From: Dictyostelium discoideum
Lineage: Eukaryota
Direction: 5' to 3'
Assembly (NCBI GenBank): GCA_000004695.1
Contig: CM000151.3
Span: 6,880,001 to 6,944,000 of the forward strand
Length of the DNA stretch: 64,000 bases
Shown one piece after another: positions 6,512 to 22,980 of this stretch (positions within the stretch are counted from its first letter, which is position 1; every line of letters begins with the position of its first letter). A model generated the notes under the pieces. That model was not told the origin of the DNA. It did not search any database and worked only from the letters and a program-made list of their open reading frames with translations. The position numbers were made by a program, and so were the translations under genes.

Positions 6512-8462
6512 TATATAATTATATTGATATCAATTTTAATTTTAATAATATCAATATTTTTAAATTTTAAATTAATAATTTTTATATTTTCAATATCATT
6601 AATAGTGATTATATTAATATTGAAAATTATAAATTCAAAGATTAAAGAGATTCAAAGAAATATTAAATCATTAGAAAAAGTTAATTTAGAATTAATTGAT
6701 GCTTGTAAGAATCATTATAATCAAATTAGTAAAACTATACAATTAATTAGAGAAGTTGAATTAATATCAAGAGGTTATAGATTATCAACACCAATAACTC
6801 CAATTGAAAGAATTGAACAATCCAATAATAGTGGTAATGGTACTAGCAATAGTTATAAATCTGAAAAATCATTTATTTTAAGAGCAAGTGTTTCAAAATC
6901 ATTAAAAACATTTATAATTTTATTTAAAAATTTAATTGAAAATCAAGCAATTTCTTTAAATTTACTTGAAAATCAAAAACAATTTATTAAATGTCAATTA
7001 TCAGAACTTTTCAATTCAAATAATAATAATAATAATATTGATGATGATGATGATGATGATGATATTAACACAAAAGAAAATCAAGAAGAAATAGAATTAG
7101 ATCAATTAGAAAATGATTCACAATTACCAATTGTAACATTAAAATTAATGTTACATCAATATGAATTCATGGTTTCAAATTTCTTTACTTTATTTATTAT
7201 ATCATTTTCAAATTTATTAAATAATAATAATAATTTTAATAGAAGTGATGGTATTATTACTACTAGTAACCTCTTTAATTTTTCAAATATAAATAATAAC
7301 ATTTGCCAATTTCAATCAATTCTATTAAAAATTTCAAATAGATTAACGATTGAAAATAATTCAATTAAATCTTTAATTTCAAAAGAATTATGGGAAAATA
7401 GTATAATATCATCATCATTATTGTTATTTCATTCCCCTAGTACAAAAAAAAAAAAAAAAAAAAAAAAAATACCTTTTACTAACTATTATCATTATTTTTT
7501 CATTTTTTAATTTAGAAATTCCAAAAAGAGTTATATTATCAAAACCAAAGAAAACAACTATTGAATCATTTATATATAATACTAATCAAATAGCAGAATC
7601 ATTAAATAGCATTAGTCCATTATTTACAAGTTTACTTGAAAAAATAGTTCCCTTAAAACAAAATAATAATCAAAATAATAATCAAAATAATAATAATAAT
7701 AACAACAATAATAATAGTGATTATGAATCATCATCATCATCATCATCTATAACAATACTTGATATTTTAAAATTAGATGAAGTTGTAAATGACTTTTTAT
7801 TAATTAAAAATGAATTAACAAACTCATTAAAGAATTGGGATAATGCAAATAGATCTTTAGTAAAGATGGTTAGAACTATACCAACAACAAATCCAAATTT
7901 ACAAAAAGAATGGACTGAACAAGAAGCAACTGAAAAATTAAAAAAACTATTAGAAAAATTAAGATCCAATCATTTTAATAATAATGATGATCATGATGAT
8001 CATGACGATGATGATCCTAATAATCAAAGACGACAAAAACAAAATGAATTAAATAAATTAATGACTTCAACTACAACAATCAATGAAAATCAATGGTTAA
8101 TTTATGAAGATACTGGTGACCTTGATCCAACATATATTGAAAGACCTCTAATTCAAATTAATGAAAATACAAATAGTGAACTATCAAATACAAATAATGA
8201 AACAACAACAATAATAATAACAAAACCACCCCCACCTCCACCACCAATGGGATTACCAAGAAGAACCAAACCTCCAAAAAGGACAATGTATGATCCTGAT
8301 TTTGATCCAATAACTCAAAAAATGAAAATATCTTCTGAAACTAGTACTCAAAATAATAATAAAAATAGTATTGCTGCTTCAATAATTCCACAAAAGAAAT
8401 TAATGAATGAACTTAAAACTGTTTTAGATATTCATGTCCTAAAAAAGAATATGCCAACTTAA
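5788..8462 (+). CDS. hypothetical protein with poly-N/D tracts, one strongly hydrophobic transmembrane segment, coiled-coil-like segments and a C-terminal PPPPPPP motif; join(5788..5887,6012..7439,7516..8462)
   Basis: Three ORF pieces join with consistent phase. Intron 1 runs GTAAAT (5888) to AG (6010-6011). Intron 2 runs GTACAA (7440) to TTTAATTTAG (7515) and contains a TACTAAC-like branch motif. The hydrophobic stretch is IIILISILILIISIFLNFKLIIFIFSISLIVIILIL. No homologue recognised. Confidence 0.5.
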
Positions 8463-8600
8463 TACCAAAAAATAATAATAAATTCAATCTTGGGTCTTTT
8501 TATTTTGTTTTAAAATTTTTTTTTTTTTTTATTTTTTCTTTATCATTATTTCTTTTTTTTCGTGAGAAAAAATTAATTCAAGACTTTTTTTTTTTTAAAT

Positions 8601-9363
8601 TTATTTATTTCTTTGAGTAACTCTTTTAGCAGCATTGACAATGTTTTGAGTTTGGACCATACTATATATTCGAAAAAAAAAAAAAAAAAATTAATAAATG
8701 TGAACCAAATGAATAATTAAAAAAAAAAAAAACAAATTAATACTTACGCAGCATTTTCCAAGTTTGAAGCATATGGCATTGGAACATCAGCACCACAAAT
8801 TCTTTCAATTGGGGCATCTAAATAATCAAAAGCATGTTCCATCATTAATGCAGAGATTTCAGCACCAATACCAGATTGTGCCCAACCTTCTTCAACGGTA
8901 ACTAATTTATTTGTTTTTTTGAGTGAATTTACAATGGTTTCAGCATCAATTGGACGAATGGTACGTAAATTGATAACTTCAGCAGAGATACCTTCTTTGG
9001 CAAGTATTTCAGCAGCTTCCATACAGTTACTAACGATTCTAGAGAAACCAACAATTGTAACATCTTTACCTTCTCTTTCAACTTTTGCTTTACCAATTGG
9101 AACAAGGTATTCTTTATCTTGTTCTTGATCTGATAAATCAAATTTATAATTGTAAAGTAATTCACTCTCTAAATAAACAACTGGATTATCATCACGAATT
9201 GCTGATTTTAATAAACCTCTATGATCAGCAGCACTCCATGGTGCAACAACTTTAAGACCTGGAACACTACCATACCATGCAGCAAAACACTAAATTAATA
9301 ATAATTATAATTATTAATTATTAGTATTTTTAATTTGAAAGAAGGAGGGGGAGAGAGAGAGAG

Positions 9364-9394
<31 letters not shown>

Positions 9395-10166
9395 TACTTG
9401 ACTGTGTTGAGCACCAACAGCAGTTGGTGGACCATTTGGACCTCTCCAAACGATTGGATTGAAAACTTTACCACCAGACATATAATGAGTTTTAGCAGAT
9501 GAATTGATGATGTGATCAATTGCTTGCATAGCAAAGTTGAAAGTCATAAATTCAATGATTGGTCTAGTACCTGCCATAGCAGCACCAACACCAATACCAG
9601 CAAAACCAGCTTCTGTAATTGGAGTATCAATAATTCTATCACCACCATATTTATCGAATAATCCTTTAGTGATCTTGTATGCACCATTATATTGAGCTAC
9701 TTCTTCACCCATAATAAAAACTTTTTCATCTCTTGCTAATTCTTCATCCAATGCACTATTAATTGCATCACGAACTGTAACCTATATATAAAATAAAATA
9801 ATTTATTAATTATTTTAATTTAACAATAATAATAATAATATAATAAATATAATAAAAATAATAAAAATAATAAAAATAATATAGTTTTTTATTTTATTTT
9901 ATTTTATTTTATTTTATTTTATTTTTTGACACTATGGTGGGGTTCATTGTGGATTTTATTTTTTATTTTATTTTATTTTATTTATTTTTTTTTTTTTTTT
10001 GTTTTTTATTTTTTTTTTATTTTTTTTTTTTTTATAAAATAAATAAATAAATTGAATACATATAAAAAAAAATTCAACGTACCTCTTTAGTAGCATAAGT
10101 TCTAGTGATAATTCTAAAGTTAACTAATAATGATGGTTGAATTTTTTTTAAAATTGAAGACAACAT
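8601..10166 (-). CDS. pdhB: pyruvate dehydrogenase E1 component beta subunit, mitochondrial; complement(join(8601..8661,8748..9289,9398..9781,10083..10166))
   Basis: It starts [132 protein letters not shown]. It ends [98 protein letters not shown], which is collinear with human PDHB including the C-terminal IPQVKDIIFAIKK-type tail. Donors are GTACGT/GTAAGT. Confidence 0.9.
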
Positions 10167-11920: not shown

Positions 11921-13916
11921 ATTCGTTAAACCCATCATAATAAACTATTTTTTAGTAATATAGCATTAAGTGCGTTTTATTTATTTTAGTATTTTTTATT
12001 GAGTTAGAGGAATCAAAAATTATTATTATATTACTATTATTATTTTAAGTCAATAGTTTTTTAATTTAATTTTATTATAAATCTACAAATCTATATTTCA
12101 TCAATTAATTGGACATTATTCAATACAAATAAAAAAAATAAATGACAACATATATGAACTAAAAATAGAATTTTTTTTTTATATAAACACACCGATCCAA
12201 AAAAAGTGTGGTTAAAATTTAATAACAATATCTAGATTTAAATTTTTTTTTTTTTTTTTTTTTTTATATGTATACTAAAATAAATAAAAAACAAATATAT
12301 ATAAAAGAAATAATTATTTTTATAAATGACGATCATTTATTTTTTATTTGTTATTTATGTCAGTAAAAAATGTTTTGAGAGAAATTTTTTTTTTTTTTTT
12401 TTTATACATACTAACCAAACTTTAAATCAGATTCTACATAAACTAATGTTATAAAAAAAAAAAAAAAAAACAAAAATGAAAAGATATTGGATTTAAATAA
12501 CTGCGAAATAGATTTAAATCAATGAAGTTTTAATAATATCCAAGACCAAACATATGCATAAAAAAAAAATTAAAAAAAAAAAAAAAAAAAAAAAAATTAT
12601 TAAAAATTTATTATTATTTTATTCCAGCTTGTATTTAATTTCCAAGGCAAGAGAATAAAATTTCTATTAATATTCATTAATTTTTTTTTATTTTTTTAAA
12701 GATTTATTAAGAAATACTAAATACTTTATAATGGTTTAATTATTATTTTATTTTTTTTTTTTTTTTTGATTTCATTTTTGATCATGTGATCCAATGAATC
12801 AATATAAAAAAAAATAAAAAAAAAAAAAAATAAAATATTTTAATAAAAATAAAATATTTTGGTTAGTGGTGGGTGTTGATATCAACATTTTACTTTTTAA
12901 AAATCAAAAACCTATTTTTAATGTCAATTGCAACATTAACTAATTACAAATTCTTTCATTAATTCCGAATATTATTAAATATTTTCTTTGAAAACAAAAA
13001 AAAAAAAAGAATAAAAAAACAAAGAGTATTTTATAAAATTGTTTTACATATTTTATATTTTAGTTTTTTTTTTTTTATTTAATTTTTTTTTTTTTTTATT
13101 TTATTTTTATATAGTTTTATTTAATAATTTACGAAAACATATTCTCTTCATTTTAAAATATAAATAATGATATATAGTAAGTTGTAGAAAAAAAAAAAAA
13201 AAAAAAATGAAATTAATAAAAAATATTTTGTTATTTATTTATTAACAATTATTTAATTTAAATTATTTCAGAATCAATGGTTTTTAAATATTATAAATGT
13301 GAATCATGTAATTCAAATCATATAGAATCAGGTTCATCTCATTCAATAAATTATTGTTTGGATTTAAATTCAAGTAAAATTTATAGAAATCTAACATGTA
13401 CATCATTTTTTACTCGCCCAATTTTCCAATCTTTTTAAATATTAGGTCAACACTGAATTTCTTGAAAAAAAAAAAACAAATAAAATAAAAAATCCATCAA
13501 ATGAAAAAACAATTGAACATATATTCCGAAATCAAAATAAGATTAAAAAATTTCAAATTGTTAGATTTTATTTATATTTTTTAAAAAATATTAAAACAAA
13601 CAATTAATAAATTATTTTCATTTTATTTTGCTATTAAAAAAATCATTTATTTCTAAAATTGTTTTTTGAGAAATTAGAATTAAAAAAAAAAAAAGAAAAA
13701 CCCCACAAACAAAAATAATAAAATTAATTCTGGTTAGTCGACACATAATGAAAATAAAACTAATTCTGGTGAGTCAACATTTTGAAAATAAAATTAATTT
13801 ATTTTTAATAAAAAAAAGATTTTTCAATTCTTTTTTTTCTTCATTATTCAAGACGAAAATTGACCATCTTCATCAAAAAAAAAAAATTTAATTTAATTTT
13901 TTTTTTGGTAGTGAAT

Positions 13917-14366
13917 GGGGCATAAGATCAGTGAATTTATTTGATTTTCATTTAAAATATCATCCTGAAAGAATACAAACCTATATTAGAGCAGCATTTG
14001 GCTCAATCTTCCTATATTATCATCCAAAATTTATTATTAAGGTTTTAAAATTTTTAGAAGAGTCTATCAATCATAATAAACCATTTACTTTAACTATAAG
14101 TGAAAGAAATTATTTCATTATTAAATATTTAGATAGTTATAAATATAATGAAGAATTGTTTTAAAATGATATTGAATAATCCGATATCACCAACTTCAAT
14201 ATTTCGAAATATCCAAATTTTTAAGAAATTTTCAAGTGTAGATACAAGAATGGGTGTATATAGTTATTTAACTTATAAAAAATTACTCCCTTTTGGATTT
14301 AATAGTATTCGAACATCATTTTATTACCGTAATGAAAGTTCATACGAACCTAAATTAACTTTCTAA
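13917..14366 (+). pseudogene. truncated, frameshifted paralogous fragment of the large gene at 17934..22781; it covers codons ~110-250 and then runs straight into the 3' end/3' flank
   Basis: ORFs 13931..14164 and 14148..14366 sit in different frames. They read LFDFHLKYHPERIQTYI...HPKFIIKVLKFLEESINHNKPFTLTISERNYFI and ...PISPTSIF...KKLLPFGFNSIRTSF, mirroring VDLFDFHLKYHPEELQTHI...HPKLIIKVLNFFKESINHNKPITLTKNERNYFI...PISSTSIF...QKLLPFGFNNIQTSF in the large gene. The 3' flank at 14355-14400 (AAATTAACTTTCTAAAAA...ATAAAACAATA) matches the 3' flank of the large gene at 22848-22895. Confidence 0.6.
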
Positions 14367-14914
14367 AAACAATAATAAAGTATAAAAATAAAACAATAAA
14401 TTATATACACAAATATTAAAAAATTCTTTTGGTAATAAAAAGGTTATTTAATAATTTTTTTTATTTTTTTTTATTTATTATTTTTATCATTTTATTATTT
14501 AATTAAATGGATGTGAATTGAATGTTTTTTTTTTTTTTTTATTGGTGCATGAGAGAAAAAAAAAAAAAAAAATTAAAATAAAAAAATAAAAATAAAAACA
14601 TGGGTGTTTTGAGATATTATTAAATTTGATTTTTTTTTTTTTTTTTTTTTAATTTTTTTATTTTTTTTATTTTTAATAAATAAACTTTGTTTTTAAATGG
14701 TTGAATAATAGAAATAGAAATTGATTTAAAAAAACTAATTAAAATCATATCTTTTTTGTATTTATTTATATTTTTTTTTTTTTTTTTTAATTTCCAAGGA
14801 TTTAATTATTAATTTATTTTAATTTCCATTTAGTATGGATAAACAGAAAACTCAAAAATATACAAAATGATATAGAATTTTAAAAAAATAAAAATAATCA
14901 TTCTTTTTTATAAT

Positions 14915-17283: not shown

Positions 17284-17389
17284 CTAAAAATAGAAAAAAA
17301 AAAAAAAATCTGTATAATAATGTTCATGATATCAAATATTTTTCATTGAAATTTAATTCTTATTAATTTGAAGATTGAAAGAAAAAAAG

Positions 17390-17933
17390 ACTATTTCTTG
17401 GATGTCCAAAACAAAAATTCATTTTATTTTTTTTATTTTTTTATTTTAATTTTTTTAATTTTTCTTTTTTCATTTTTTTTTTTTTTTAAAACAAAACTTA
17501 AATAAAAATAATAAATAATCAAAGAATTGGATGAGTACTTCAAACCATTATCACTTCAAATTGTTATTTGTAAGAAAATAATAATAAATAATCAAAGAAT
17601 TGGATGGGTACTTCAAACCATTATCACATTTAAATCTTTGTTATCTGTCCCAAAATTACCATAATAATTTCAGCCTAAAAACGGGTTGTTTATGCATGCT
17701 TAAATTGATATGGTAATTTTGGGACAGATAACAAAGATTTAAATGTAGAGCTTTTATTTTTTTCTATTTCTAAATAAGTTGGTATGAATTTTGAAAATCA
17801 AAAGAAAAAAACACGATTTCTTGGATATCCAAAACAAAAATTTTTTTTTTTTTAATTTTTTTATTTTTTCATTTTTTTTTTATTTTTTTTTTTCTTTTAA
17901 ACAAAATATAAATAAAAATAATAAATAATTATA
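17390..17933. repeat. composite repeat region upstream of the large gene, with four parts: two direct copies of its promoter/5' leader (17390-17530 and 17810-17933); two tandem 48-bp copies of a fragment homologous to the gene's 3' coding end (17507-17553 and 17578-17627); a perfect 37-bp inverted repeat (17628-17664 / 17710-17746); and a 45-bp spacer
   Basis: The direct copies share TTTCTTGGATGTCCAAAACAAAAATT...AAACAAAACTTAAATAAAAATAATAAATAAT. GATGGGTACTTCAAACCATTATCAC resembles GATGGGTACGTCAAACCATTATCATC at 22631-22657. The inverted repeat is ACATTTAAATCTTTGTTATCTGTCCCAAAATTACCAT with its exact reverse complement. Confidence 0.7.
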
Positions 17934-20900
17934 ATGAATAATGAATATAATGAATTATTATTTTGGAAAGTTTTTAAAAATAATTATTTATTAAATTGTA
18001 TATTAAAAAATAAATGTTGTTATAAAAGTAAAAAATTTAAAACTATTACATCAATAGATTCAATGTTAAAACATAAACAATATCAACTGTTGATATGTAA
18101 ATTAAAAGCAGATGAAAATTTGTATTTTAAAGGAAAATATGGAAATGATGAGATCATTAATAGAATAGAAGATATAGAAGTATTCAAAGAGATATATTCA
18201 TTATTACTCTTTAAAGGTTATCAAGATACTAGGGATCATCGTATTTTATTCGATAGTATTTGGGGTATAAAATCAGTAGATTTATTTGATTTTCATTTAA
18301 AATATCATCCAGAAGAATTACAAACCCATATTACAACATCCATATACTCAATCTTGGTATATAATCATCCAAAATTAATAATAAAGGTTTTAAATTTTTT
18401 TAAAGAGTCCATCAATCATAATAAACCAATAACTTTAACCAAAAATGAAAGAAATTATTTCATTATGGAATATTTATATTATTGTAGATATGGAAGAAAT
18501 ATTGAAGAATTGAAAGAAAAGATGAAAATGATATGGAATATTCCAATATCGTCAACCTCAATATTTCATAATTCAGAAAAAAGAGTTCCAAGTGCGAATG
18601 TAGGTTGTTTTCTAAAATATCAAAAATTATTACCTTTTGGATTTAATAATATTCAAACATCATTTGATTGCTCTAAAGAAAATCCAAGGAGTTATTCTTC
18701 TATTGGTGATAGGCGGGGAGATGAAAATAATCAACGTTCTGTTTATAGCATAAATCATTTAAATATGTTTTCAAGTTTTTGTTATGACTTTGATGATAGT
18801 ATTTGCGAGTACATAAAAGATGTTAAAGGAAATTTTGAGTGTATCTCTTCATCTATCAAATCAGTTTTATTATATTTTAAATTGTATTATTGCAACTATG
18901 ATTATAAAAGTAAATCAAAAAGTATACCAACATCGATTCAAACTCAAATTGATATAATAATTGAAAATAGTAAACATAGACGTTGTACTGTATATCAATC
19001 AATTAAACAATTATTTCAACTATTAGCCATTGAATCAAAATCAATTGTTTTATATGCATTTTATTTAAAAGAATATAATGAACCAATTGATACCATTGAA
19101 CTTAGTGAAGAAATTCAATTATTGTTAATATATTACATGATAAAAACCTATAACACCAATATATTAAAGTTTCTATTGAAAAAACATTTAAAAATCAAAT
19201 TAACAAAATTAGATTTGGACTATATTGGTGAATCATATCTCAAATTTTTATTTAAAAGTAAACAAATTAATAAAAACAATATTATTATGTTCTACAAAAA
19301 CTACACATCACAAAAATCAATCATTATAGAAGATTTAGATGAAAAACCACTAGATGATGCAATATCAACAAAGGAACTTATTGATTTGGACAATAAACGA
19401 TTACATTCAATTCTAGGTAATGAATCATCATCGAAATGGAAAGAAATTACATCAAATATAATTGATAATGATATGATTGTTACAATTAAAGATAAAGAAA
19501 CAATCGATTGGTTATCAGATATAGAAACAGGTGGTGGTTGTAGTATTTTAAAAATAAGAGATGCTTTAAATTCAAAATTAAAACAAATGAAACTTGATTT
19601 TAGTACATTGGAATTATTAGAATATGCAAGAATCAAATTTAAACAAGTAATTCCAATTTTAGATTTAAATAAAGAGTTGTGTAATATCCACATTTTACGT
19701 ACTCATGATGATATTGAATCATTAATCAATCGTTTAAACCAATCAAACTTTAATAACAATGAAAATTTATTTAAATATTATATGATTCAAATAATTCAAT
19801 TTGGTTCAAGAAATTCAATGAAATACCTAAGATTAATTTGTGATTCTATTGACGAGTTATTAATGGACTATGAAGGTTGGGTAATTTTAGATGACACTTT
19901 AAGAAGGTTTTATATTAACTCATACCTAATAGAAGGAGAGATATGGGACAATTCAGTAGGTTATCATGAAAATAAAAAGTTCAAAGAATACAAAATACCA
20001 ACTCAACAAACATGTCAAATAATCAATCTCACCAAAATTAAAGTCAATTTCAATCACTTTCCAAATGTAACTTCTTATTTATTACAAACATTTATCGAAC
20101 TTTTAAATTTTGAAGGTGTTCAGTTTATTCTTGATAATTTAAATGGTAAAAATTTAAAATTAAATGAAAAAGCATTTAAAGATCGTTTTCATGATAGAAT
20201 CTATACATGCAAATATTTATATAAAGATTTGATTGAAATGATTCAATTTTTAATTAATAAATTCAAAGATGGTCAATTATCATTATCAAATTTATCATTG
20301 ATATTAAATTTCTTATTTTCAATGTTAATTAGAGTCAATGATTTAACAAATGATCAAATCAAAACAGCTTATCAATCAATATCAAACTATATTGAAATAG
20401 ATAGTTCAGAACTCAATTCATACTATTATTTAAAAACATTATCACCCATTATTTCATCATGTATTATCATTTTTAGAGATAATGGTGGTGGTGATGTTAG
20501 ACCATTACTTGAATATCATATAGATACATCAGTATATACATTCGAACATATATTTACAAATAGAAATAATAACGATCTGAACCAATTTATCGATTCAACA
20601 ATCATGGATATTGTAAAAGATCGTTTTTATTCTAATTTAAACAAAATGTTAGATAACAATAATCCAAGAATTAATTTATTTTTACATTATTTCGAAATTC
20701 AATTAAAATACAAAAATGAAAATGATTTCAAAGGACCATTTTTAAATTATAAACTATTGAAATTAATAATTAAAACATTTGATTTAGAATCATTTATTAA
20801 ATTAGATAGTTTATTAGAGAACCATAATGGTAATTGTGAGCAAGAGGGTTCAAATAACAGGATTTTAAGCGAATTAGAGAAATTTTATTTTAATTGGAAA

Positions 20901-22781
20901 AAACCATTATCATCTAATATGGTTGAATGGTTTGGTATAATTGTATACAAAGATTATTCAGATTATCAAGATATTATAAATTACTTATTTAATAAATATA
21001 AACACCAATTGGAACCATATATAATTTACTATAAATTAAAAATAAATAATAAATCAATAACTAATAATCAGTTACATTCAATTTTATGTAATAAATCATC
21101 ATCGAAATGGAAAGAAATTACATCGAATCTAATTGGTAAGGCCGCTGCTACAATTAAAGATAAAGAAACAATCGATTGGTTATCAGATATAGAAACAGGT
21201 GGTTGTAGTAATTTAAAAATAAGAGATGCTTTACATTCAAGATTAAATCATATGGAACTTGATTTTAGTTCATTGGAATTATTAGAGTATGCAAGAATCA
21301 AATTTAAACAAATCATTTCAATTTTCGATTTATGTGATGAGTTTTTCGAAATTCATATTTTACATACTCATGATGAAATTGAATCATTAATCAATCGTTT
21401 AAACCAATCAAACTTTAATGAAAATGAAGATTTATTTAAAAATTATATGATTCAAATAATTGAATTTGGTTCAAGACTTTCAGCTAAACACATAAGATCA
21501 ATCTTTAAATCATTGGAATATGGCGTTGACAAGTCATCATTGGGAAATGATAATTATAAAGAGTGGAAGTATTTAATAAACAAAGTTTTCAAATACGAGT
21601 ATAGAAGGTTTTTTGATAACCCCTCATACATCCATGAAGAATATTTTTTGGGCCAAATACTACGTGATCATAAAAACGAAGAATACAAAGAATACAATAT
21701 ACCAACTCGACAAGAATCTCAAATAATCAATCTTTCTAAAATTAAAGTCAATTTCAATCACTTTGCAAATGTAACTTCTTATTTATTTCAAGGATCCATC
21801 GAACTTTTAAATTTTGAAGGTGTTCAATTTATTCTTGATAATTTAAATGGTAAAGATTTAAAATTAAATGAAAAAGCATTTAAAGATCATTTTCATGATA
21901 GAATCTATTCATGCGAATATGTTTCTAAAGATTTATATGATACCATTCAATTTTTAATTGAAAAATTCGAAGATGGTCAATTATCACTATCAAATCTATC
22001 ATTGATATTAAATTACTTATTTTCCAAGTTAATTAGAGTCAATGATTTAACAATTGATCAAATCAACATATCTCATCAATTAATATCAAACTATATTGAA
22101 ATAGATAGTTCAAAATACAATTCATACTATTATTTAAAAATATTATCACCAATTATTGAATCATGTATTACCGTTATCGAAGGTCCTACAAGTGATGATG
22201 AAGATGGTAATGGAAAACCAAGACCATTCTGTCATTATGATATAGATACATCAGTATATACATTCGAACACATATTTACAAATAGAAATAATAACGATCA
22301 GAACCAATTTATCGATTCAACAATCATGGATATTGTAAAAGATAATTTTACAATTGAAATATTTTCCAAAATGTTAGATAATAATAATCCAAGAATTAAT
22401 TTATTTTTACATTATTTCGAAATGGAATTAAAAAAAAGAAAAACAAGTAATGATTTCGAAAATGTATTTTTAGAATTTGAACAATTGAAATTAATAATTA
22501 AAACATTTGATTTAGAATCATTTATTAAATTTGAATATTTATTACAACAATATCAATTCTACTTATCACCTGATATCGATGAATGGTCAGATATAAACAA
22601 AGAGTATGCAAATGATCAAGAGGATATAAATGATGGGTACGTCAAACCATTATCATCTAATTTGGTTGAATGGTTTGGTAAAATTTCATTCATATATTAT
22701 CCAGATTATCCAGATATTCTTAATTACTTATTTGATAAATATAAAAACCAATTCGAACCATATACTAATTATATAAATTAA
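17934..22781 (+). CDS. large lineage-specific hypothetical protein, 1615 aa, single exon, built from an N-terminal unique region plus two tandem ~555-aa internal repeats
   Basis: Continuous ORF. Repeat 1 is about 19400-21070 (HSILGNESSSKWKEITSN...KPLSSNMVEWFGII...). Repeat 2 is about 21070-22740 (HSILCNKSSSKWKEITSN...KPLSSNLVEWFGKI...). The two share roughly 75-80% amino-acid identity. No known domain recognised. Confidence 0.75.
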   Translation: MNNEYNELLFWKVFKNNYLLNCILKNKCCYKSKKFKTITSIDSMLKHKQYQLLICKLKADENLYFKGKYGNDEIINRIEDIEVFKEIYSLLLFKGYQDTRDHRILFDSIWGIKSVDLFDFHLKYHPEELQTHITTSIYSILVYNHPKLIIKVLNFFKESINHNKPITLTKNERNYFIMEYLYYCRYGRNIEELKEKMKMIWNIPISSTSIFHNSEKRVPSANVGCFLKYQKLLPFGFNNIQTSFDCSKENPRSYSSIGDRRGDENNQRSVYSINHLNMFSSFCYDFDDSICEYIKDVKGNFECISSSIKSVLLYFKLYYCNYDYKSKSKSIPTSIQTQIDIIIENSKHRRCTVYQSIKQLFQLLAIESKSIVLYAFYLKEYNEPIDTIELSEEIQLLLIYYMIKTYNTNILKFLLKKHLKIKLTKLDLDYIGESYLKFLFKSKQINKNNIIMFYKNYTSQKSIIIEDLDEKPLDDAISTKELIDLDNKRLHSILGNESSSKWKEITSNIIDNDMIVTIKDKETIDWLSDIETGGGCSILKIRDALNSKLKQMKLDFSTLELLEYARIKFKQVIPILDLNKELCNIHILRTHDDIESLINRLNQSNFNNNENLFKYYMIQIIQFGSRNSMKYLRLICDSIDELLMDYEGWVILDDTLRRFYINSYLIEGEIWDNSVGYHENKKFKEYKIPTQQTCQIINLTKIKVNFNHFPNVTSYLLQTFIELLNFEGVQFILDNLNGKNLKLNEKAFKDRFHDRIYTCKYLYKDLIEMIQFLINKFKDGQLSLSNLSLILNFLFSMLIRVNDLTNDQIKTAYQSISNYIEIDSSELNSYYYLKTLSPIISSCIIIFRDNGGGDVRPLLEYHIDTSVYTFEHIFTNRNNNDLNQFIDSTIMDIVKDRFYSNLNKMLDNNNPRINLFLHYFEIQLKYKNENDFKGPFLNYKLLKLIIKTFDLESFIKLDSLLENHNGNCEQEGSNNRILSELEKFYFNWKKPLSSNMVEWFGIIVYKDYSDYQDIINYLFNKYKHQLEPYIIYYKLKINNKSITNNQLHSILCNKSSSKWKEITSNLIGKAAATIKDKETIDWLSDIETGGCSNLKIRDALHSRLNHMELDFSSLELLEYARIKFKQIISIFDLCDEFFEIHILHTHDEIESLINRLNQSNFNENEDLFKNYMIQIIEFGSRLSAKHIRSIFKSLEYGVDKSSLGNDNYKEWKYLINKVFKYEYRRFFDNPSYIHEEYFLGQILRDHKNEEYKEYNIPTRQESQIINLSKIKVNFNHFANVTSYLFQGSIELLNFEGVQFILDNLNGKDLKLNEKAFKDHFHDRIYSCEYVSKDLYDTIQFLIEKFEDGQLSLSNLSLILNYLFSKLIRVNDLTIDQINISHQLISNYIEIDSSKYNSYYYLKILSPIIESCITVIEGPTSDDEDGNGKPRPFCHYDIDTSVYTFEHIFTNRNNNDQNQFIDSTIMDIVKDNFTIEIFSKMLDNNNPRINLFLHYFEMELKKRKTSNDFENVFLEFEQLKLIIKTFDLESFIKFEYLLQQYQFYLSPDIDEWSDINKEYANDQEDINDGYVKPLSSNLVEWFGKISFIYYPDYPDILNYLFDKYKNQFEPYTNYIN

Positions 22782-22980
22782 AACTTTCAATTCAAAAATT
22801 CAATTACTGCTATTAGTTAAAATCTTTTCACATAAAATCAATATTGTTCTAAATTAACTTTCTAAAAAAATAAAATTATAAAAATAAAACAATATATTTA
22901 CACAAAAAAAAAAACCAAAAAAAAAAAAAAAAAATTATTACTCTTTGTTCCAATTACTTGTGGTAGTTGTTGTTTGATTT

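Follow-up and report, generated by a model that had tools for sequence, protein, structure and literature searches.

A probable relic of a former tandem paralogue upstream of DDB_G0276559 in Dictyostelium discoideum

In tandem gene families with a fast turnover, the birth and death of members leaves genomic debris of a well-known kind. An unprocessed pseudogene lies beside a live member of its family and keeps some 5' non-coding sequence and a piece of coding sequence, without a usable open reading frame (ORF). Two other kinds of intergenic element have to be kept in mind in Dictyostelium. One consists of the thug-S repeats of D. discoideum, which are palindromic and non-coding. The other consists of the hairpin loci of miRNAs; the pri-miRNAs of Dictyostelium start after T-runs and are mostly intergenic hairpins (PMC6161686). 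The DNA analysed here, referred to as the window, is a stretch of 64,000 nt from chromosome 2 of D. discoideum AX4 (an 8.48-Mb record). At 17329-17789, it contains a block that is probably the non-functional relic of a former tandem paralogue ('gene X') located just 5' of DDB_G0276559, of which an orphaned promoter and about 14 codons of the tail would be left. As such a relic, it is a product of ordinary birth-and-death decay in a fast-turnover tandem gene family.

The window is poor in G+C (about 20%, against about 80% A+T) and rich in long A and T runs; a scan of it for tRNA genes gave no hit. DDB_G0276559 itself is a plus-strand ORF of 1615 aa at 17934-22781, with its ATG at 17934 and with 100% identity to the database protein. 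A search for relatives gave 29 proteins, none of them from outside D. discoideum and D. cf. discoideum, to which the family is confined. The initial annotation called the 1615-aa gene an orphan. This label has to be dropped, since at least four paralogues are present in AX4 (DDB_G0271218, DDB_G0276409, DDB_G0276403 and DDB_G0276401) and many in other strains, the usual member being 1010-1100 aa long. No domain was found in the family with Pfam, and a literature search for the five AX4 family gene IDs found no mention of them.

Five syntenic loci, reached via homologues and a cluster member, were compared with the window, and the gene order RPS13, a 233/234-aa gene, the family gene and NTF2 was the same in all. 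The loci of D. discoideum are those of strain ACTFIT (L007, GCA_054883475.1), ACTFIW (L001) and ACTFIR (L005), and those of D. cf. discoideum are from ACTFIY (L006) and ACTFIZ (L002). The locus L003, which holds a tandem array of separate paralogues, was also used for the promoter comparisons.

DDB_G0276559 has the architecture N + C + C', in which 19392-21041 is repeated as 21063-22781 with 85-88% nucleotide identity. At the stop-codon region of the first C copy, the reading frame runs on into codon ~485 of the following copy. The gene is apparently the product of a fusion of two tandem family genes by a deletion of what lay between these two points. The C-terminal ~560 aa of the protein are thus a tandem duplication, and the number of C units in the gene at this locus varies among strains. 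The called length of the product is 1973 aa in L001, 1630 aa in L005, 1483 aa in L002 and 1122 aa in L006. Near the 3' end of the family genes lies a conserved region, IKELDGY.KPLS. In DDB_G0276559, this motif (DGYVKPLS) is encoded at 22632-22655 on the plus strand, 125 nt ahead of the stop codon, and gives a 24-mer match to the sequence discussed below.

Two copies of the family promoter are found upstream of the gene. Copy B (17790-17933, plus strand) is attached to the gene and continuous with the ATG at 17934. Copy A (17367-17519, plus strand) is orphaned; its elements are the box TTCTTGGATGTCCAAAACAAA, T-runs and AAAACAAAACTTAAATAAAAATAATAAATAAT, and it stops exactly where the family genes go on with TATAATG. 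When 17300-17950 was compared with the window by blastn, 17790-17929 matched 17367-17519 with 82.4% identity over 153 nt (E 4e-39, 153 bits), while the top match in the AT-rich background scored 77 bits. Outside the homopolymer and T-run blocks, the two copies agree at 37/40 and 31/34 positions. The upstream promoter copy described in the initial annotation is therefore real and the match is specific, standing well above the AT-rich background rather than reflecting mere poly-A/T likeness. Its limits were misplaced, having been given as 17390-17530 against 17810-17933 instead of 17367-17519 against 17790-17929.

The layout of the family promoter comprises an upstream block TCATTGAAATTTAATT.., a box TTCTTGG-N4-CCAAGACAAA, T-runs and a leader AAACAAAACATAAATAAAA..AATAAATAAT|TATAATG, and the same layout precedes separate paralogues in the L003 tandem array. 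Copy A is a complete promoter of this type, with an upstream block, the TTCTTGG-N4-CCAARACAAA box, T-runs and the AAACAAAAC..AATAAATAAT leader. Its upstream block (17329-17366, plus strand, ATATCAAATATTTTTCATTGAAATTTAATT...) has no counterpart in copy B; it is homologous to L001 from 9758 on, L005 from 9762 on and L002 from 9746 on, as well as to the paralogue promoters at L003 9756 and 14689. Copy A also aligns with the promoters of L001, L002, L003_g10001 and L003_g14955, and thus has the 5' regulatory homology to be looked for in a relic of a family gene. In an informative 62-nt promoter block, A and B agree at 51/61 positions, B and L003_g3 at 51/60, B and L002 at 49/57, and B and L001 at 48/60, a comparison that rests on about 60 informative bases. 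On these bases, A and B are no nearer to each other than the promoters of distinct family members are, and would be old copies. Both the completeness of A and this degree of divergence, which is that of paralogue promoters, speak for gene X. One detail speaks against it: CCAAAAC is found in A and B alone, where all other promoters compared have CCAAGAC, which suggests a closer relationship between the two copies or limited gene conversion. Copy A also carries two changes unique to it in the otherwise conserved CACG box.

An inverted-repeat box common to the family promoters reads TCTTGG-N4-CCAAGA, with CAAA after it and four variable nucleotides at its centre. It is present at 17395-17415 and 17818-17838 of the window, at ~9826-9846 of L001, and upstream of the genes at 10001 and 14955 of L003. 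Within the window it occurs at the two promoter copies only, with 0.18 matches expected by chance, and it is a candidate site for a dimeric transcription factor. The 260 nt 5' of the single promoter in L001 and L005 have no counterpart in AX4 and are homologous to intergenic DNA inside the paralogue array (L001 9585-9687; L003 14619-14709 and 9526-9627). This suggests that some 450 nt of upstream sequence belong to the unit in which the family duplicates.

The second component of the block is a fragment of a gene 3' end. The sequence GATGGGTACTTCAAACCATTATCA occurs at 17603-17626 without mismatch, and with one mismatch each at 17530-17553 and in the gene's own KPLS region at 22632-22655; no match was found in 100 shuffles. 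The 12-mer AAACCATTATCA was searched for in the window and six related loci (about 210 kb, L007 excluded). It was found only at the ends of family genes or their internal repeats, in a gene remnant of L002 and in the two units described next, always on the gene strand. These units form a plus-strand tandem repeat at 17504-17656 with a period of 73 nt (TRF; 2.1 copies, 85% matches, score 212), and blastn aligned 17504-17592 with 17577-17668 at 84% over 93 nt. The copies are arranged head to tail, and each unit comprises the last ~16 nt of the promoter, a gene fragment of ~44 nt and ~25 nt that also start the left arm of a palindrome, so that the promoter/fragment junction is included. The initial annotation reported two tandem 48-bp copies of the last codons of the gene. 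The tandem arrangement and the homology to the gene 3' end are confirmed; the length of 48 bp is not, the period being 73 nt and the gene-derived part ~44 nt. The resemblance to 22620-22670 that it pointed to is a specific 3'-end homology, as local alignment of unit 2 with 22580-22670 gave 23/24 matches and z = 10.

The closest relatives of the fragment lie elsewhere. The copy in unit 1 (17513-17556, plus strand, ..TAATCAAAGAATTGGATGAGTACTTCAAACCATTATCAC..) matches L002 9361-9402 with 88% over 42 nt, L006 13706-13748 with 86% over 44 nt, and 22632-22655 at 22/24 positions. The copy in unit 2 (17586-17629, plus strand), which reads IIKELDGYFKPLSH in the gene's frame, matches the syntenic remnant at L002 9361-9404 with 91% over 44 nt (E 1e-10). 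Aligned with this remnant, unit 2 gives 43/47 with one gap (z 16.6), and with the L006 gene end 36/38 (E 3e-11, z 19), whereas its match to the AX4 3' end at 22632-22655 is limited to the 24-nt core (23/24). Homology to family coding sequence in the same orientation is thus found twice, over ~44 nt each time and with z values of 10-19. The units also retain the family-typical CAAAGAATTGGATG, in place of which the present AX4 and L001 genes have CAAGAG.AT..AAATG, and TCAC(AT) after CCATTA is found only in the units and the L002 remnant. The fragment thus resembles the D. cf. discoideum sequences (L002 remnant and L006 gene end) more than it does the 3' end of the AX4 gene. Coding capacity has been lost, since no ORF longer than 45 codons is present in 17367-17933 and the ATG-proximal sequence has been replaced.

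These properties argue for gene X: the fragment comes from the conserved KPLS region, lies on the gene strand, is closest to the syntenic L002 remnant and keeps the family-typical CAAAGAATTGGATG, unlike the present AX4 and L001 genes. They also modify the first interpretation of the block as the remnant of a tandem duplication with an internal deletion. A promoter fused to a short 3' coding piece is what an internal deletion would leave, and this part can be kept. The part that made it a copy of the present downstream gene cannot; for a recent copy, A and B should be closer than B is to other paralogues, and they are not (51/61), and the fragment has better matches in L002 and L006 than at 22632-22655. 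In a region of ~80% A+T with long homopolymer runs, one could suspect an assembly error or a chance similarity of low complexity. The scores far above the background and the zero matches in shuffles make this explanation practically negligible, and the same structure is present in the independent ACTFIT assembly, which shows that it is not an assembly artefact.

Copy A follows the family leader exactly to ...AATAAATAAT and then continues with CAAAGAATTGGATG in place of TATAATGAATAATG, so that the fusion point of promoter and fragment lies 5 nt before the expected position of the ATG. At the matching point, the gene ends read ..GAAATAAT|TAAAAAATTGG in L002 and ..TTAGTAAT|CAAAGAATTGG in L006. 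Since the end of the leader and the gene ends are alike, the join falls in 4-7 nt of shared AT-rich sequence. This would be compatible with a microhomology-mediated deletion, for which such a join is weak evidence in this base composition. On the right, the homology of the fragment ends at ...CCATTATCACAT. Comparison of 17630-17790 with the remaining coding end and 3' flank of AX4, L001, L002 and L006 on both strands gave similarity at chance level. As nothing right of the 44-nt fragment resembles a gene end, a second breakpoint and the palindrome must be involved. A piece of ~44 nt with breakpoints on both sides, and with no gene-end match to its right on either strand, would also fit a short templated insertion, which weighs against gene X. 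By eye, the left palindrome arm gave the impression of continuing the 3' coding sequence of the gene; shuffle tests did not support this.

The palindrome, which the initial annotation did not mention, directly follows unit 2 at 17626-17746. It measures 121 nt, with perfect 38-nt arms (17626-17663 and 17709-17746) and a partly symmetric 45-nt spacer, and every other long inverted repeat of the window is of low complexity. With DNA parameters, its predicted fold has -43.8 kcal/mol (z -14.7) in AX4 and -53 kcal/mol (z -17.4) in ACTFIT. In ACTFIT (L007 9693-9813), the arms are perfect for 47 nt, compared with 38 perfect nt and three mismatches in AX4. Across 17500-17800, AX4 and ACTFIT differ by three substitutions (17664, 17701 and 17707), all in the inner palindrome arms, and by eye L006 agrees with ACTFIT at two of them (17664 and 17707). 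In AX4, the differences are either mutations that break the palindrome or errors of Sanger sequencing or cloning. The start of the left arm lies within the last 4 nt of the fragment, and unit 1 holds the first ~25 nt of the arm in a diverged form, from which it follows that this ~25-nt sequence is older than the inverted duplication. The identical arms indicate either that the palindrome is much younger than the direct repeats or that it has been kept uniform by arm-to-arm conversion. The palindrome is separated from copy B by a plus-strand spacer at 17747-17789 (GTAGAGC, a T-run and CTATTTCTAAATAAGTTGGTATG). The spacer and the right palindrome half jointly show weak collinearity with L006 9633-9744. 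The alignment of AX4 17684-17780 with this segment, just 5' of the single promoter of L006, is weak (z 4.1, with 2/300 shuffles as high).

The palindrome might be explained as a small non-autonomous DNA transposon of the MITE or thug-like type, inserted between promoter B and the relic. Its terminal inverted repeats are long (38 nt perfect, 47 nt in ACTFIT), it has no coding capacity, and palindromic non-coding thug-S repeats exist in D. discoideum. Such an origin is nevertheless very hard to credit. No match to the arms was found elsewhere in ~230 kb of related sequence besides the ACTFIT element and the weak similarity in L006, and a transposon would be expected in further copies. No target-site duplication can be distinguished between the flanks CAC| and |GTAG, any TTAA or TA being part of the palindrome. 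Moreover, the diverged first ~25 nt of the left arm in unit 1 imply that this sequence was resident before the inverted copy arose, and related sequence is present at the same site in L006.

The hairpin also raises the question of a retained function. Copy A might fire and give rise to a transcript that interferes with DDB_G0276559 or extends its 5' UTR, or the hairpin might be a small-RNA precursor. All promoter blocks that can be recognised, the inverted-repeat box among them, are retained in copy A, and a stable hairpin lies ~135 nt downstream of its T-run, the order of T-run and intergenic hairpin being that of Dictyostelium pri-miRNAs (PMC6161686). A retained function is quite improbable all the same. 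The Rfam scan of the window gave no match, and the arms are not in the miRNA tables of the PMC6161686 supplement. No target is evident, as the arms match nothing else in the related loci save the ACTFIT element and the weak L006 similarity. Furthermore, A has its two unique changes in the conserved CACG box, and the whole block is missing from two other D. discoideum isolates. The more specific idea that an active promoter A reads through two sense units and a 38-47-bp hairpin, and so forms a young hairpin or small-RNA locus or an interfering upstream transcript, is highly improbable. If it were true, the wreck of a dead paralogue would modulate DDB_G0276559 in strains of the AX4 type and not in those without the block.

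The block varies structurally across strains, being present in AX4 and ACTFIT and missing from ACTFIW, ACTFIR, ACTFIY and ACTFIZ. The upstream region of ACTFIT, at 99.5% identity to the window over 24 kb, has the AX4 structure with two promoters, units and palindrome. Between 17086 and 17940, six substitutions separate ACTFIT from AX4, along with a poly-A run that differs in length by 4 nt; 3/6 of the substitutions lie in the relic core at 17500-17800. One promoter, without units and without palindrome, is present in both ACTFIW and ACTFIR, where a different family-type intergenic stretch lies 5' of it. ACTFIY has one promoter, and the sequence before it is weakly collinear with the palindrome region. 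In ACTFIZ, the one promoter is preceded by a family gene end of ~300 nt. This L002 remnant, at the same genomic position as the AX4 fragment and its closest relative, goes on past the stop codon into the 3' flank (window 22632-22934 against L002 9378-9679, 81%; tblastn covers 9234-9509). With the stop codon and 3' flank included, it follows that a gene end did lie 5' of this promoter in a relative. An intact gene at the position of the relic was found in none of the genomes examined, and L001, L005 and L006 are without any gene remnant there.

Two further observations concern L002. An imperfect palindrome of ~800 nt (8435-9229), 71% self-complementary, adjoins the 3' gene remnant. The L002 orthologue of DDB_G0276559 has, at ~14509-14529, no equivalent of window 22443-22737, the part with the KPLS motif, and the remnant 5' of the L002 promoter retains that part.

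The distribution among genomes counts against gene X in one respect. Since four of the five other genomes have a single promoter, the second promoter could by parsimony be a gain of the AX4/ACTFIT lineage. Such a gain may have come from a complex rearrangement in that lineage with no gene X, in which one template switch of the MMBIR/FoSTeS type copied the promoter, ~44 nt of gene end and a fold-back. Besides the single promoter in L001, L005, L002 and L006, this scenario would accommodate the short fragment with breakpoints on both sides, the adjoining tandem and inverted duplications, the CCAAAAC common to A and B, and the junctions in AT-rich microhomology. It is unlikely, as A and B (82-84%) and units 1 and 2 (85%) are far more diverged than AX4 and ACTFIT are (99.5%). 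The divergence between A and B and between the units is about that of the promoters of different paralogues, which indicates that the events are old and were not simultaneous with the formation of the perfect-armed palindrome. Moreover, the AX4 gene end would have been the obvious local template, and the fragment matches it less well than it does the L006 gene end and the syntenic L002 remnant. For gene X, it can be added that the block has the same structure in ACTFIT and that like events, namely a deleted upstream paralogue and fused copies within the gene, are found nearby.

The deleted upstream paralogue is represented by a plus-strand remnant at 13899-14352, with 93% identity to L001 3798-4250 and L005 3829-4281. 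Its counterparts sit inside intact genes of 1107 aa (L001 3485-6808) and 1100 aa (L005 3516-6818), and AX4 is without equivalents of L001 3317-3798 and 4250-6848. AX4 and ACTFIT have lost the promoter with the 5' end, and most of the coding region, of this paralogue in two separate deletions. The repeated local cycles of duplication and deletion proposed in the initial annotation are borne out by this deleted paralogue, by the N + C + C' fusion and by the varying product lengths. An ancient divergence of the AX4 and L001 cassettes is not claimed, the identity of the genes (85-87%) being just below that of the flanks (88-96%).

If the block is the relic of gene X, it could have formed in four steps. 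In the first, gene X would have lost nearly all of its coding region by a deletion whose left breakpoint was the end of the leader (...AATAAATAAT), 5 nt short of the ATG, and whose right breakpoint was an AT-rich site of similar sequence. The 3' partner site, ..AAATAAT or ..GTAAT, would have been located about 150 nt before the stop codon. A second break would then have removed all sequence beyond ...CCATTATCACAT. Later, the junction region would have been duplicated in tandem with a 73-nt period, giving units that are now 15% diverged. Finally, an inverted duplication of the adjoining sequence would have produced the palindrome, whose arms are still perfect. We infer from the sequence in which order these events took place, that microhomology mediated the deletion, and that the relic at 17329-17789 lacks a function, the last point being presumed.

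The relevance of the locus lies mainly in annotation and the design of experiments. With two family promoters and a strong palindrome 5' of DDB_G0276559, care is needed across 17367-17933 in promoter-reporter constructs, knock-in arms, PCR and cloning. Isolates of D. discoideum differ in the structure of the locus. The locus is also a compact, datable example of the death of a tandem family member in an 80% A+T genome, and illustrates how sequence is lost between short AT-rich strings, duplicated locally in tandem and duplicated in inverted orientation. It calls for no new mechanism.

The locus can be compared with several known systems. As in the hairpin miRNA loci and thug-S elements of D. 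discoideum, a stable intergenic hairpin lies downstream of a T-rich promoter; unlike them, the element is not in the published miRNA tables searched, belongs to no Rfam family and is single-copy in ~230 kb of related sequence. With MMBIR/FoSTeS rearrangements it shares a short gene-derived piece between unrelated sequences and adjacent direct and inverted duplications. It differs from them in that its components are of different ages, with 15-18% divergence in the direct repeats against 0% between the palindrome arms, and in that the fragment is not closest to the nearby template. The likeness to microhomology-mediated deletion or unequal recombination lies in the breakpoint, which falls in a short AT-rich string where AATAAATAAT resembles the (A)AATAAT or GTAAT before CAAAGAATTGG. 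At 80% A+T, however, microhomology of 4-7 nt is expected by chance, and the mechanism is unprovable from sequence alone. There is also a likeness to an unprocessed pseudogene in a birth-and-death tandem family: a paralogous copy lies beside a live member with 5' non-coding sequence, a coding piece and no usable ORF, neighbouring copies have been deleted or fused, and the copy content varies by strain. What sets the block apart is its unusually strong reduction, to a promoter and ~14 codons, with the junction duplicated in tandem and a palindrome added.
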